Origin: Lepagella sp.
GTDB lineage: Bacteria > Bacteroidota > Bacteroidia > Bacteroidales > Muribaculaceae
Length of the DNA: 64,000 nt
Direction: 5' to 3'
Assembly: GCA_051878555.1 (NCBI GenBank)
Contig: JBJEKI010000047.1
Span: 47,203 to 111,202 of the forward strand
Each line of letters starts with the position of its first letter. Positions within the stretch are counted from its first letter, which is position 1. The position numbers and the translations under genes are program-made. Below are positions 14,089 to 39,981 of this stretch, piece by piece. The notes beneath the pieces are model-generated. The model made no database searches. It saw only the letters and a list, made by a program, of their open reading frames with translations, and was not told the origin of the DNA.

Positions 14089-15615
14089 TTATTCCCACTC
14101 GATCGTGGCTGGCGGCTTGGACGAGATGTCGTAGACTACGCGGTTGATGCCACGCACCTTGTTGATAATCTCGTTGCTTACCTTTGCCAAGAGCTCGTAG
14201 GGGAGGTGTACCCAGTCTGCTGTCATGCCATCTGTCGAGATTACGGCGCGTAGCGCGCAGCATCTTTCGTAGGTGCGCTCATCGCCCATCACACCGACGC
14301 TCTGAACCGGTAGCAACATCACGCCTGCTTGCCATACCTTATCATACCAACCCGATTCTCTCAGATTGTCGATAAAGATTTTGTCGGCTTGCTGCAAGAT
14401 TGCCACCTTCTCAGCTGTTACCTCACCAAGGATGCGGATGCCAAGTCCCGGTCCGGGGAAGGGGTGACGTCCCAACAACTCGGGATCAATACCCAACGCC
14501 TTGCCGACACGTCTCACCTCATCTTTGAAGAGCAGTCGCAACGGCTCCACCACCTGAAGGTTCATCTCCTTCGGCAGACCACCCACATTGTGGTGAGACT
14601 TGATAGTGGCTGAAGGACCCTTGACCGAGCAGCTCTCGATCACGTCAGGATAGATTGTGCCCTGCCCAAGCCAGCGTGCACCCTCCACCTTCTTCGCTTC
14701 AGCATTGAACACCTCCACGAAATCGCGGCCGATGATCTTACGCTTCTGCTCCGGATCGGTGACTCCAGCCAGGTCGGCATAGAAACGCTCCGAGGCATCT
14801 ACGCCCCTCACGTTCAGCCCCATACCCTTATAAGATGAGAGGACACCCTCAAACTCGTTGGCACGTAGCAATCCATTGTTCACAAAGATGCAATGGAGGC
14901 GATCGCCGATGGCGCGATGTAGCAACACCGCTGCTACCGTCGAGTCGACACCACCCGAGAGTCCGAGGATCACCTTGTCATCACCCAGTTTCTCGCGGAG
15001 TCCCTCCACTGTCGTGTCGATAAATGATGCAGGACTCCACGTGCCGCTGCATCCGCAGATGCCTAACACGAAATTACCCAGCAACTTTGTGCCATCGGTA
15101 GAGTGGAACACTTCGGGGTGGAACTGGATGCCCCAAGTCTCCTCACACTCGATATGATAAGCCGCTACGCGAACATTGTCGGTAGAGCCGATAATCTTAT
15201 ATCCGTCGGGGATATTGGTGATAGTGTCGCCATGCGACATCCACACTTGAGTAGGGGAGGGGAGTCCCGCCATAAGGCGATCGCTCGCATCCACCACGCT
15301 CAGCATCGCGCGACCATACTCGCGGCTCGGAGCACCCTTTACCTCGCCACCATACTCGTGAGCCAGCAACTGCGCCCCATAGCATACCCCCAAGAGGGGC
15401 ATCTTTCCCTTGATATGGCTGATGTCGGGCTTCGGTGCCCCCTCGTCTCTGACCGACGCAGGACTCCCCGACAAGATTACTCCCTTGGTGTCGCCATCGA
15501 TCTCGGGAAGATGATTGAAGGGATGGATCTCACAATACACGTTGAGCTCCCGCACACGACGTGCGATAAGCTGTGTATACTGCGATCCGAAATCTATGAT
15601 TAATATTTTTTCCAT
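14089..15615 (-). CDS. guaA: GMP synthase (glutamine-hydrolysing)
   Basis: Start trimmed to [13 protein letters not shown]; GVCYG, QFHPEV, SGGVDS and KPPATIEWE motifs. Confidence 0.97.
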
Positions 15616-15644
15616 GTCTTGTCTGTTGTGAGATAAGGCTATGT

Positions 15645-17117
15645 TTAGAATCCGGGTGAATAGTTGGGAGCCTCCTTGGTGATGGTCACATCGTGCGGGT
15701 GATTCTCCTTCACGCCGGCAGAGGTGATTCTTACGAACTGAGCATTGTGGAGCTCCGAGATATTGTGAGCGCCGCAATAGCCCATACCCGAGCGGAGACC
15801 GCCGATCAGCTGATAGATAGTCTCGCCCAGAGTCCCCTTATAAGGCACGCGAGCCACGATACCCTCCGGCACGAGCTTGTTGGTGTCCATCTGGTCTCCC
15901 TGGAAGTAGCGATCCTTCGATCCGGCTTGCATTGCCTCCACTGATCCCATGCCGCGATATGACTTGAACTTACGGCCATTATAGATGATAGTCTCACCCG
16001 GAGACTCCTCCACGCCGGCAAGCATCGAACCCATCATCACGCAGTCTCCACCGGCGGCGATAGCCTTCACCACGTCGCCCGAATAGCGGAGTCCTCCATC
16101 GGCGATCACAGGGATGTCATAGCGATGTGCCATATTTGCCACATCATAGATGGCTGTAAGCTGGGGCACTCCCACGCCTGCCACGATACGTGTCGTGCAG
16201 ATCGAACCGGGACCGATACCCACCTTGATGCCGTCGGCACCTGCCTCAATCAGGAACTGTGCCGCTGCCGCTGTAGCGATATTTCCCACCACTACATCGA
16301 TCTGGGGATATGCCTCCTTCACTGCCTTGAGGGTGCGAATCACATTGGCTGAATGGCCATGCGCAGTGTCGATTACCACGGCATCCACACCATTCTTCAC
16401 CAGTGCATCCACACGCTCCAACGTATCTTTAGTCACGCCGACACCTGCAGCCACGCGAAGACGTCCCTTGCTATCCTTGCATGCATTGGGAAATTCGCTG
16501 ATCTTAGTGATGTCGCGATATGTGATCAAGCCTACAAGACGATTCTCCTCATCGACCACCGGAAGCTTCTCGATCTTATTCTCAAGCAAGATCTGTGAGG
16601 CTGAAGCCAAGTCGGAATTGCGTGTAGTCACAAGATTCTCCGAGGTCATGATCTTGCCCACCTCGAGAGCCATGTCTGTCTGGAAACGCAAGTCGCGGTT
16701 GGTGATGATGCCAATCAGGTGGCGCTCATCATCGATTACGGGGATGCCGCCGATGCGATTCTCTTTCATCAGTTTCAAAGCATCAGCCACAGTCTGGCTG
16801 CTGGTGATAGTAACAGGGTCATAGATCATGCCGGAGTCGGCACGCTTCACCTTGCGCACCTGCGCTGCTTGAGCGGCTATCGACATGTTTTTGTGGATCA
16901 CTCCGATGCCACCCTCTCGGGCTATGGCGATTGCCATCTGGGCTTCGGTCACTGTGTCCATCGCTGCCGACACCACCGGGATGTTCAGGCGTATGTTGCG
17001 CGAAAAGCGTGAGCCAAGCTCTACGCGGTCAGGAGTCACGTCGGAGTATGCCGGTACGAGCAATACATCGTCAAATGTGATCCCCTCTTGTGTGATTTTG
17101 TCTTCGATAAACGACAT
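15645..17117 (-). CDS. guaB: IMP dehydrogenase
   Basis: [19 protein letters not shown] pair and [11 protein letters not shown] motifs. Confidence 0.97.
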
Positions 17118-17146
17118 AGGCGCTGTTTTGATATTTTTATTTAGGG

Positions 17147-38600: not shown

Positions 38601-38825
38601 CTCGACGAAGGCGGCTGTCACCGGCAGGAAGTATATATGGTCGGCACTTCCATCCGAGGTCTGCACCGTCGCTATGTTGGGGTTAATCAGAATCGTCTCG
38701 ATGCCCTCTTCTCGCAGGGCCTTCAGAGCCTGACTGCCGGAGTAGTCGAACTCTCCCGCTTCGCCGATTTTTAACGCGCCCGATCCGAGCACAAGCACTT
38801 TCTTGATGTCGCTCTCTTGTATCAT
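35601..38825 (-). CDS. carB: Carbamoyl-phosphate synthase large subunit
   Basis: GEAGEFDYSGSQA, two ATP-grasp domains, C-terminal MGS domain. Confidence 0.97.
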   Translation of the reverse strand: MIQESDIKKVLVLGSGALKIGEAGEFDYSGSQALKALREEGIETILINPNIATVQTSDGSADHIYFLPVTAAFVEKVIARERPQGIMLAFGGQTALNCGVELFHQRILEKYNVRVLGTPIQSIIDTEDREIFVEKLDEIDVKTIDSVACDNKEEALRAAESLGYPVILRAAYALGGLGSGFCDNAEQLCVLADKAFSFSPQVLVEKSLKGWKEVEYEVVRDSFDNCITVCNMENFDPLGIHTGESIVVAPSQTLTNSEYHKLRELSIRIARHIGIVGECNVQFALCPDSEDYRVIEVNARLSRSSALASKATGYPLAFVAAKLGLGYGLFDLRNSVTKTTSAFFEPALDYCVCKIPRWDLGKFRGVNRELESSMKSVGEVMSIGRTFEEAIQKGLRMIGQGMHGFVGNKELEIPDIDGALHAPTDMRIFVIEKAFHKGYTVDQIHELTKIDRWFLYKLRRIYDLYGELKKIGSLEATPLDLLREVKRAGFSDFQTARALGMERDMEIEKALLKVRMRRKSLGIVPCVKQIDTLAGEFPAATNYLYLTYGGDKNDINYEHDGRSVMVLGSGAYRIGSSVEFDWCGVQALNTIRKEGYRSVMINYNPETVSTDYDICDRLYFDELTFERVLDIIEMETPYGVVVSTGGQIPNNLALKLDEQGVNLLGTSARSIDNAEDREKFSAMLGRIGVDQPAWSALTSMEDINDFVDKVGFPVLVRPSYVLSGAAMNVCYDRTQLEKFLTLAANVSKRHPVVVSQFLEHAKEVEMDAVACNGEIIAYAISEHVEFAGVHSGDATIQFPPQKLYVETARRIKKISKKIAKQLNISGPFNIQFLARDNDIKVIECNLRASRSFPFVSKVLKINFIELATRIMLGLPVSKPDKSVFDLDYVGVKASQFSFNRLQKADPKLGVDMVSTGEVGCIGEDARSALLTAMLSVGQRIPSKNVLLSTGNGKQKGDMLGAAKLLQQKGYSIFATEGTSRHLLENGIENTRVYWPDEEGTPKAVDMINNHEIDLVINVPRNHSDKEVTNGYRIRRTAIDRNIPLITNARLASAFIKSFCSMSPDDIEVKSWQEF

Positions 38826-38898
38826 CGCTTTATATTGTGTTTTGCTGGTTTTACCTTTGGTTTCTTTATCTGTATCCTTACTTCATCTTCTCTCATCC

Positions 38899-39981
38899 TT
38901 AGAGTTTGCTTACGAAGTCATCGAAGAGAAATTCCGCATCCACCGGACCTCCGCATGCTTCGGGGTGAAATTGCGATGAGAACCAGGGCTTGCTCTTATG
39001 ACGGATCCCTTCGTTCGATCCGTCGTTCATATTGGTGAAGTAAGGCTCCCATCCCTCTTGCAGGGTGCTCGGGTCGACGGCAAATCCATGATTCTGACTC
39101 GTGATCAAGCAGCGGGTGCTACCCTCGACACGCACCGGCTGATTGTGCGACCGATGCCCATATTTGAGCTTGTAGATGCCGGCACCCGCTGCCTTGGCGA
39201 GCAGCTGATTGCCCATGCAGATACCCATCAGGGGACGGCACTCTTCCGGATTGTTGATAAAGCGTCGGATATGCTCCACGGTCTTTTCACACACCTCCGG
39301 GTTGCCCGGCCCATTAGACAGGAAGAGCCCGTCGAACTCCAGCTGGTTGAAGTCATAGTCCCAGGGCACTAAGTCTACGTCGACGCCCCTATTGAGCAGA
39401 CAGCGGATGATATTGTTCTTGGCGCCGCAGTCCACCAGCACTACGCGCTTATTCCCTTCGCCGCTCTTGTAGTGCTTCACTTCGCGTGTCGACACGAGGT
39501 CTACATAATTTATAGAGTTATAGTCGGGTGTCTCCGGAAGGTCGTTGACACCCTCCACCATGATGCGTCCCATCATCACGCCATGCTCGCGGATGATCTG
39601 TGTCAGATGGCGGGTGTCTATCCCGGTGATGGCCGGAATTCTCTCGCGCTGTAGCCACTCCGATAGACTCTCTACGGCGTTCCAATGACTATAATGCTCA
39701 CTGTAGTCGCCCACGATCAGCCCCGAAGCATGGATCCGATTGCTCTCCATGTAGGTCTCTATTTCGTCGACTCCTCGATCGCTACTCGGCACTCCATAGT
39801 TGCCTACCATCGGATAGGTCAACGTCATCAACTGTCCCGCGTACGAGGGATCCGTCAAACTCTCCGGATAGCCCGTCATCGCGGTGTTGAACACAACTTC
39901 TCCGGAGACATTGCCGGAATATCCGAACGATTTACCCTCAAAGGTCGTCCCATCTTCGAGTATCAAAGTGGCTTTTTTCAT
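38899..39981 (-). CDS. carA: Carbamoyl-phosphate synthase small subunit
   Basis: GEVVFNT, SNGPGNP, GICMGNQ and QFHPEA motifs. Confidence 0.97.
   Translation of the reverse strand: MKKATLILEDGTTFEGKSFGYSGNVSGEVVFNTAMTGYPESLTDPSYAGQLMTLTYPMVGNYGVPSSDRGVDEIETYMESNRIHASGLIVGDYSEHYSHWNAVESLSEWLQRERIPAITGIDTRHLTQIIREHGVMMGRIMVEGVNDLPETPDYNSINYVDLVSTREVKHYKSGEGNKRVVLVDCGAKNNIIRCLLNRGVDVDLVPWDYDFNQLEFDGLFLSNGPGNPEVCEKTVEHIRRFINNPEECRPLMGICMGNQLLAKAAGAGIYKLKYGHRSHNQPVRVEGSTRCLITSQNHGFAVDPSTLQEGWEPYFTNMNDGSNEGIRHKSKPWFSSQFHPEACGGPVDAEFLFDDFVSKL

Follow-up and report, generated by a model that had tools for sequence, protein, structure and literature searches.

The window analysed here, a stretch of 64,000 nucleotides from a Muribaculaceae (Lepagella sp.) contig, holds 19 genes of pyrimidine and purine nucleotide synthesis between positions 14089 and 39981, all on the minus strand. 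They fall into two modules, a pyr module (carAB-pyrCKDFEB) and a pur-gua module (purELCMHD-folD-purBA-guaBA). We consider it probable that this two-module supercluster stems from an operon of Bacilli that entered Bacteroidales, became a mosaic, spread between families and replaced the native genes in part of the window's genus. The reading draws on observations of gene content, per-gene affinities, nesting within Bacilli, a patchy distribution, the exclusion of the native PurB and a conflict with the RpoB phylogeny. The order and direction of the transfers within Bacteroidales are our reconstruction from these data.

Sampled genomes, loci and families carry G-, L- and f-codes, respectively, G000 being the window's own genome. 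All 19 genes were named from the open reading frame (ORF) listing and NCBIfam profile scans. PurB served as the marker in an evenly drawn order sample of 200 other genomes from ~148 families, and the family sample comprised 150 genomes from 35 genera of the window's family, five of them from its own genus. RpoB was the kinship yardstick for loci and genomes. We refer to Bacteroidales genomes without the cluster as natives (G234 of the same genus, G020, G115 and others), and the Bacilli comparators were the metagenome-assembled genomes (MAGs) G376 and G382; L068 and G376 denote the same low-GC Bacilli MAG. Further loci came from a scan of one-genome-per-species contigs with PurB alignment, in which the best 80 of 595 candidate stretches had 71-93% identity. 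These loci were mostly Bacteroidales, with most donors out of reach, and included L068 and L081.

Distribution and Bacilli affinity of the core genes

The Bacillus-type PurB is patchily distributed. It was found in five of the 200 other order-sample genomes, belonging to three other families of the ~148, at 71-77% identity; the remaining matches listed for that sample had 26-33% identity. Within the family sample, the type was confined to the window's own genus (three of five genomes), and none of the 34 other genera had it. The native PurB of the E. coli/B. thetaiotaomicron type (NF006764) is present in the non-carrier congeners G234 and G285 and in the family member G020, and it was detected in none of the 52 searched carriers of the Bacillus type, so the two PurB types are mutually exclusive. 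Across the one-genome-per-species contigs, at least 80 species have this PurB at 71-93% identity, under labels including Muribaculaceae/Sangeribacter, 'Tidjanibacter'/'Alistipes', Paludibacteraceae, Ca. Aphodosoma, Ca. Cryptobacteroides and oral taxon 274. In a protein homology search with PurB, the best 120 matches were all Muribaculaceae-like, at 83% identity or more. The degree of clustering differs between carriers, from a lone purB up to the full two-module cluster, and another family, f44, has both modules in a permuted order (pyrCKDFEB, guaBA, purELMHD, folD, purB, a native-type purA and carAB). The native genes of relatives are scattered, over at least eight contigs in G234 and across 4 Mb in the one-contig G115, as the first-pass annotation of this DNA, which was made from the letters and their ORFs, had stated for Bacteroides.

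Two side observations concern the genomes involved. Carriers of the Bacillus-type PurB have genomes of 1.3-3.5 Mb, mostly ~2 Mb, compared with 3-5 Mb for most of the order sample, which may indicate a link with genome reduction. GC content spreads widely within the genus, from ~38-40% at three housekeeping loci of G234 (L168, L179 and L188) through 49% in the window's genome to 52-58% in G285.

Outside Bacteroidales, the closest PurB proteins are those of L068 and L081 (73-74% identity), followed by those of Turicibacter (68-69%), Ca. Izimaplasma HR1 (67%) and a Streptococcus cluster (63%). An exhaustive search of cluster representatives with PurB gave a 67% match, then a Streptococcus-named cluster at 63%, then none above 53%. 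L068 and L081 have 32-33% GC, flanks without homologues in the window's genome and RpoB proteins only 49% identical to that of G000. The class of L068 and G376 corresponds to GTDB Bacilli, because it holds Turicibacter and Ca. Izimaplasma HR1, both recognised through names of exactly matching sequences, and small genomes that read TGA as sense; 92 of the 150 genomes sampled from it have a PurB at 42-74% identity, in a continuous gradient. Two other candidate donors with Firmicutes labels, L077 ('Faecalibacillus sp.') and L091 ('Oscillospiraceae bacterium'), were rejected, since their flanking genes, and for L091 also RpoB, are Bacteroidales and the public labels wrong.

A careful PurB phylogeny united the Bacteroidales cluster copies with L068 and L081 in one clade (support 99/96). 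Its sister (93/93) is a Bacilli group with Izimaplasma among its members, and the clade is enclosed in a more inclusive Bacilli one (99/92), to which Turicibacter and Streptococcus belong. The PurH tree separated a native Bacteroidales clade (100/100) from one of Bacilli and cluster proteins (100/100), with L068 as the sister of the cluster clade (99/99). In pairwise comparisons, the window's PurL, PurM, PurA, PurH, PyrF, PyrE and PyrD were nearer to the Bacilli MAGs than to same-genus natives, and the reverse held for CarA, CarB, GuaA and GuaB. Judged by protein identity, PurB, PurL, PurM, PurH, PurA, PurC, PyrF and PyrE are much closer to Bacilli proteins than to native ones, and PurB is the clearest xenologue of the cluster. 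These comparisons bore out the first-pass annotation, which had called PurB a 431-aa Bacillus type, quoting a peptide that is indeed present as a consensus, and had judged PurA, PurM, PurC, PurL and PyrF to be Firmicutes-type.

Gene order agrees with these affinities. The L068 cluster reads purL purC purF x purM purN purH purD folD purB guaB guaA and is collinear with the window's pur-gua module. Bacilli-type purF (56-71% identical to that of L068) and purN (47-57%) are still found in or near the cluster of many Bacteroidales carriers; the window's version is without both. Between purF and purM, L068 has a 245-aa ORF (L068:3976-4713), of which neither the window's genome nor the Bacteroidales loci fetched have a homologue.

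Bacteroidales-type genes, probable spread between families and rival explanations

The first-pass annotation had taken CarAB and GuaAB for native genes. They are of Bacteroidales type, as it proposed, but CarAB and GuaB sit in cluster-linked clades apart from the native Muribaculaceae. The best order-level identity of CarB (79%, in f132 and f130) exceeds that within the family (74%) and within the genus (73%). In the CarB tree, the window and G261 proteins group with the cluster-linked CarBs of f44 and Paludibacteraceae, and those of G234, G285, G308, G020 and G161 make up a native Muribaculaceae clade (support 100). Forcing all Muribaculaceae together, a group picked after seeing the tree, was 50 log-likelihood units worse (approximately unbiased (AU) test, p=0.017). 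Likewise, the cluster-borne GuaB copies form a clade of their own (98/100), apart from the native family clade (100/100). A Bacilli-type guaB adjoins purB in the Aphodosoma, Paludibacteraceae and oral-taxon-274 loci and groups with Bacilli MAGs in the same tree. This GuaB pattern points to in-situ displacement of the Bacilli guaB and guaA by Bacteroidales genes in an earlier Bacteroidales host. By their sequence affinities, CarAB and GuaB are Bacteroidales-type, yet not this genus's own.

Within the window's genus, the RpoB tree placed the native-type G234 at the base and paired the native G285 with the carrier G261; the cluster is also carried by G308, G358, G329, G349 and the window's genome. 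Between families, RpoB of the 'Tidjanibacter'-labelled G353 groups with f138 and Alistipes-labelled carriers (support 100) and is 70% identical to that of G000, whereas the cluster proteins of G353 share 76-83% identity with those of the window and so exceed the same-genus G261 (for PurB, 82% versus 77% to G000). In a concatenated PurL/PurM/PurH/PurB tree, G353 is nested within the Muribaculaceae cluster clade (100/100), and the AU test rejects the grouping of its cluster proteins with its RpoB kin (p=6e-8). Cluster copies of the G353 type occur in four independent MAGs, on contigs of 51-234 kb. In one of these, L031, the flanking genes are only 42-53% identical to the window's genome, which makes mis-binning of the 'Tidjanibacter' copy unlikely. 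The conflict of the cluster trees with RpoB therefore argues for spread between families.

The replaced pathway left a relic. Every cluster gene is single-copy in G000 except pyrE, which has a native-type paralogue (contig C81:2354-2971, L250) only 36.5% identical to the cluster PyrE. The C81-type PyrE tracks kinship, with identities of 71, 68, 60, 58, 55, 54, 52, 50, 47 and 43% across relatives. It stands beside the cluster pyrE in all five searched cluster-bearing genomes of the genus (G000, G329, G349, G261 and G308), and non-carriers have the native-type pyrE only. The native pyrE is thus a relic of the displaced native pathway. That the native pathway had been replaced was therefore a sound proposal, and the replacement is nearly complete, as the search for paralogues across the genome yielded this pyrE only. 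G308 also retains a native carAB, in divergent orientation beside its pyr block.

The arrangement of the modules varies among close relatives. In G349, the nearest relative (RpoB 88%), the pyr module has the same panB flank and the pur-gua module lies ~28 kb off on the same contig; the spacing is 2.3 kb in G261 and 12 kb in G308. The seamless 19-gene form is specific to the window's lineage, and the adjacency of the two modules recurs across families. Window positions 9034-9148 correspond to G349:C13:1-113 (L253), where a tRNA lies directly downstream of pyrB instead of 5 kb beyond guaA as in the window. This tRNA position and the ~28-kb module spacing indicate rearrangement between close relatives. 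In G329, the assembly breaks in the pyrB-purE gap, where C19 stops 2 bp past pyrB and C46 begins 296 bp ahead of purE (L257, L010), which hints at a repeat or a variable junction at this gap.

Taken together, the cluster's history may be pictured as follows. The core pur genes, pyrF, pyrE and probably pyrD would descend from a Bacilli operon that entered Bacteroidales, where it would have gained Bacteroidetes-type promoters and a host-like composition, and where some of the Bacilli genes would have been displaced in situ by Bacteroidales-type guaA, guaB and carAB. In the window's lineage, purF and purN would have been lost from the cluster. The mosaic would then have moved between Bacteroidales families and entered part of the Muribaculaceae genus, whose scattered native genes were presumably lost, leaving the native pyrE, a divergent purF and purT elsewhere in the genome. 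The cluster would in this way have reached the window's genus secondarily, via other Bacteroidales. The first-pass annotation's old en-bloc transfer from Firmicutes survives as to the Bacilli origin and the merging with Bacteroidales-type genes. The patchy distribution and the RpoB conflict argue against old vertical inheritance here. Two further corrections concern PyrB, PyrC and PyrK, which are without a single Bacilli donor, and the contiguous form, which is not universal. With about as much to be said for it as against it, the Bacilli-derived cluster may pass between gut Bacteroidales as a self-contained, transferable unit that on every arrival displaces some fifteen scattered essential housekeeping genes at once, in several families and most visibly in small-genome lineages.

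Several points weigh against our reading. In the PurB tree, L068 and L081 fall within the Bacteroidales clade and not beyond it, and for this gene alone a back-transfer to Bacilli or multiple entries are possible. PyrB, PyrC and PyrK fit no single Bacilli donor. Composition, tried as a sign of foreignness, was rejected and offers no independent sign, since the cluster's GC content at third codon positions (~0.65) lies within one standard deviation of that of the genome's long ORFs (0.58 +/- 0.09); overall GC is 54.1% in the cluster and 48.8% in the genome. It is host-like against the ~32% of the Bacilli relatives, in keeping with the amelioration that the first-pass annotation had assumed. The DNA within 10 kb of the cluster is free of integrase and transposase genes and of att-like features. 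Flank proteins and a 14-kb flank DNA query scatter over differing contigs in congeners, so that an empty site could not be delimited, and of the flanks the panB side alone is common to G349. The native comparison covered 15 of the 19 genes, all but purD, folD, purE and pyrC. The AU-test groupings were picked after the trees were seen. Finally, NCBI labels of MAGs are untrustworthy, two 'Firmicutes' labels having turned out to be Bacteroidales.

Four other explanations were weighed against the same data. The cluster might be ancestral to Bacteroidales and vertically inherited; most families would then have lost it later and acquired scattered genes, of the E. coli type and others. This would fit with the monophyly of every carrier group in the PurB tree, the presence of the type in at least 80 Bacteroidales species and its host-like composition. 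We nevertheless hold this to be very improbable, because the PurB and PurH trees nest the cluster clade within Bacilli, the type is missing from ~144 of the 148 families sampled and from 34 of the 35 genera in the window's family, the cluster trees conflict with RpoB (AU p=6e-8) and carriers still hold the kinship-tracking native pyrE. Vertical Bacteroidota clades with ancestral clustering, which the first-pass annotation had named as the outcome that would speak against a transfer, were looked for through gene trees and distribution and were not found. Nor does the opposite direction, a type born in Bacteroidales and acquired by the low-GC Bacilli MAGs L068 and L081, earn more than slight credence. 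It would explain the place of these two inside the Bacteroidales PurB clade; however, the type is widespread in Bacilli, where 92 of the 150 genomes sampled have it at graded identities, and Turicibacter, Izimaplasma and Streptococcus all diverge around the clade. For PurH, and likewise in the concatenated tree, L068 stands as the sister of the cluster clade and does not fall within it, and the L068 cluster has a host-like 32% GC and a Bacilli-style purF/purN content.

The picture of the first-pass annotation is a single direct transfer from Bacilli into this Muribaculaceae genus, from which the other families were supplied and in which carAB and guaAB were recruited locally. In its favour, it is in this genus that the two-module cluster reaches its fullest form, and the 'Tidjanibacter'-labelled copies nest inside the Muribaculaceae clade. 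That clade is, however, derived in the PurB and concatenated trees, where the Paludibacteraceae/f44, f43-like and Alistipes-labelled carriers branch earlier; these earlier-branching lineages keep a more donor-like content (Bacilli-type purF, purN, guaB and guaA), and the CarB and GuaB of the cluster stand apart from their native counterparts in G234 and G285. We therefore regard a direct transfer as unlikely. An artefact, be it a mis-binned foreign contig or a chimeric assembly, is scarcely credible. G000 is admittedly a MAG of 133 contigs, and the related MAGs G390, G356 and G363 are contaminated, with two RpoB copies each, but the cluster sits centrally on a contig of 129 kb, the flanks of which match congeners, and the same cluster occurs in many independent assemblies. 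Entry of a Bacilli operon into other Bacteroidales, followed by mosaic formation and spread between families, remains the reading that we prefer.

Comparison with known systems

The concept of mosaic operons, which arise through horizontal transfer and the in-situ displacement of genes by xenologues, is reportedly due to Omelchenko et al. (2003), and the 'selfish operon' model is attributed to Lawrence and Roth. The cluster is best filed as a large and recurrent case of such a mosaic operon. The gene trees are incongruent with the organismal tree, and the native orthologue is absent where the xenologue is present. Genes of mixed origin were observed within one co-directional cluster, for which a single transcription unit is predicted only. 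The cluster differs from mosaic operons in its scale (19 genes, two complete pathways and their branch points), in displacing nearly a whole essential housekeeping set and recurring in several families, and in having two layers of transfer, from Bacilli to Bacteroidales and then between Bacteroidales. The literature searched held no description of such a cluster. The locus does not qualify as a genomic island or integrative element: it has no integrase or transposase nearby and no tRNA-adjacent insertion, the nearest tRNA (9098-9171) being 5 kb away; as for flanking repeats, direct repeats were not searched for.

The L068/G376 cluster shares nine genes in the same order with the window's pur-gua module, at 52-74% protein identity, along with the single-chain TIGR01857 PurL and the folD-purB adjacency. 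In contrast to it, the window lacks purF and purN, has added purE and purA, has Bacteroidales-type guaB and guaA and putative Bacteroidetes-type promoters, and contains 54% instead of 32% GC. In Bacillus subtilis, the operon orders are pyrR-P-B-C-AA-AB-K-D-F-E and purEKBCSQLFMNHD. The window has in common with them the pyrK-pyrD-pyrF-pyrE order, a class 1B dihydroorotate dehydrogenase with PyrK and the 431-aa PurB type. Unlike the B. subtilis pyr operon, it is without pyrR, pyrP and a PyrR attenuator, has pyrB last, with a PyrI_C-like tail, and has Bacteroidales-type carAB; unlike the pur operon, it has a single-chain PurL instead of PurS/Q/L, no purK and no purine riboswitch. Native Bacteroidales (G234, G115 and B. 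thetaiotaomicron as a control) have the same pathway functions and the same broad types of CarAB, GuaA and GuaB. Their genes are, however, scattered, their PurB is NF006764, and their PurL, PurM, PyrF and PurC are of other types.

Core nucleotide synthesis usually counts as stable housekeeping, inherited vertically. In this case a whole pathway set was probably swapped for a compact foreign version, which would have moved again between families of dominant gut bacteria. As a natural system, the cluster lends itself to asking what lets a clustered foreign pathway prevail over dispersed native genes, how foreign operons are rewired to Bacteroidetes promoters and how far metagenome inference from marker genes or pathways can be misled, as Bacilli-type pur and pyr reads may belong to Bacteroidales. 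The genes purB, purL, purM and pyrF are poor phylogenetic markers in this order.

Layout of the locus and individual genes

The naming, co-directionality and order of the 19 genes given by the first-pass annotation were confirmed with NCBIfam names for each: carA carB pyrC pyrK pyrD pyrF pyrE pyrB, then purE purL purC purM purH purD folD purB purA guaB guaA. They have coding capacity for the whole uridine monophosphate pathway, eight steps of inosine monophosphate synthesis, the adenosine and guanosine monophosphate branches and FolD. Intergenic gaps range from -10 to 109 bp, with two exceptions, the pyrB-purE gap (242 bp) and that upstream of carA (~400 bp). Each of these contains a putative Bacteroidetes-type -7 box found by motif scan, TAACTTTG (40256-40263, minus strand) in the gap upstream of carA as a candidate pyr-module promoter, and TAATTTTG (29922-29929, minus strand) in the pyrB-purE gap as a candidate pur-gua-module promoter. 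Only two evident TAnnTTTG promoters had been claimed. The boxes at 40263 and 29929, which occupy the sole gaps of any size, agree with this, but the motif occurs four times on the region's coding strand, twice inside purL; the total count is at chance level, and the placement alone is suggestive. A sigma-70 promoter scan was discarded, its counts being near those of shuffles and the sigma-70 model not applicable to Bacteroidetes. Just after guaA lies a bidirectional terminator-like hairpin (13888-13919) with a 14-bp stem including eight G-C pairs, which also closes a convergent tnaA-like gene. The short gaps, the two promoter-like boxes and the one terminator suggest co-transcription from two promoters, and the pyr and pur-gua modules are likely two operons. 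An Rfam scan of the window found only one tRNA reaching the gathering score, and no riboswitch, T-box or PyrR element; the ORF listing and NCBIfam gave no pyrR ORF within the cluster.

The contig belongs to a 2.45-Mb, 92.8%-complete Muribaculaceae MAG, and its flanking genes have 75-84% DNA identity to congeners; they comprise genes for a tnaA-like lyase and an FtsX permease, panB and capsule genes. Elsewhere, the genome has a divergent purF of 486 aa (202 bits against a cut-off of 350 bits) and a clear purT. Neither purN nor purK was found in this 92.8%-complete genome, the lone ATP-grasp match of the purK search being PurT.

In the pyr module, all genes of which are on the minus strand, carA (38899-39981; TIGR01368, 452 bits) encodes a Bacteroidales-type carbamoyl-phosphate synthase small subunit, 62% identical to the natives G234 and G020, 65% to f44 and 39% to G376. 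The large subunit, carB (35601-38825; TIGR01369), is 73-74% identical to natives and 42% to Bacilli MAGs, and belongs to the cluster-linked Bacteroidales-type clade. The dihydroorotase pyrC (34295-35566; TIGR00857) has 36-37% identity to G376 and 60% to f44, and a language-model atlas points to Bacillota-rich clusters, as a lead only. The electron-transfer subunit of class 1B dihydroorotate dehydrogenase, pyrK (33549-34298; NF000798), has 35-45% identity to natives and 40-41% to Bacilli MAGs; the dehydrogenase itself, pyrD (32641-33558; NF005574), is slightly Bacilli-like (53-55% to G376/G382, 46-48% to natives). The orotidine monophosphate decarboxylase gene pyrF (31830-32537; NF001273) is Bacilli-type, with 55% identity to G376 and 71% to f44, and has no match at E<=1e-5 in the natives G234, G020 and G115. 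The orotate phosphoribosyltransferase gene pyrE (31160-31792; TIGR00336), also Bacilli-type, has 60-64% identity to G376/G382. Last comes pyrB (30013-31104), an aspartate carbamoyltransferase gene whose TIGR00670 match covers residues 3-301 of 363, leaving a C-terminal tail of ~55 aa. It has 63% identity to f44 and is close neither to natives (47-49%) nor to Bacilli MAGs (35-38%). For the tail (window 30013-30180), the nearest atlas clusters (~362 aa), from Bacillota and Bacteroidota, have PF02748 PyrI_C in 100% of their members, which is a lead only.

The pur-gua module, likewise on the minus strand, begins with purE (29297-29770; TIGR01162). Its top PDB matches are of class I, so that PurE resembles class I N5-carboxyaminoimidazole ribonucleotide mutases, yet the genome has no detected purK. 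It is followed by purL (25471-29187; TIGR01857, 1711 bits), a single-chain, Bacilli-type formylglycinamidine ribonucleotide synthase gene with 55% identity to G376, 63% to f44 and 26-31%, over a partial alignment, to natives. The Bacilli-type purC (24705-25478; TIGR00081) is 70% identical to that of L068/G376; another PurC type, adjoining purB in many carriers, has only 24-27% identity to the window's. Two further genes of Bacilli type are purM (23665-24690; TIGR00878), with 65% identity to G376, 73% to f44 and 27-38% (partial) to natives, and purH (22071-23600; NF002049), with 57-59% to G376/G382, 52-58% to 15 Bacilli and 42-46% to natives. Both purD (20806-22056; TIGR00877; 54-59% to L068/L081) and folD (19890-20741; NF010776; 55-57% to L068/L081) are probably Bacilli-type. 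FolD would supply 10-formyl-tetrahydrofolate for PurH, and the folD-purB adjacency is present too in the Bacilli locus L198. The starts of folD and guaA were set from family matches, for folD at the ATG at 20741, the NF010776 match beginning at ORF residue 58.

The Bacillus-type adenylosuccinate lyase of 431 aa is encoded by purB (18514-19809; TIGR00928), with 26-33% identity to other Bacteroidales and top PDB matches 1f1o, 2pfm and 2x75. Next to it, purA (17147-18442; NF002223) is Bacilli-type, with 58% identity to G376, compared with 44-46% for natives and for the copy in f44. The Bacteroidales-type guaB (15645-17117; TIGR01302), of the cluster-linked clade, has 77-90% identity to cluster-borne copies, 69-70% to all family natives and 55-60% to Bacilli MAGs. 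The module ends with guaA (14089-15615; NF000848; start set at the ATG at 15615), also Bacteroidales-type, with 72% identity to G115, 66-67% to same-genus and same-family natives and 53% to G376. Elsewhere, in a 'Bacilli bacterium' lineage (P0124 / G402:C8:13228-14505), PurB and PurA are fused into a single protein of 855-864 aa, in a cluster of 62 members.

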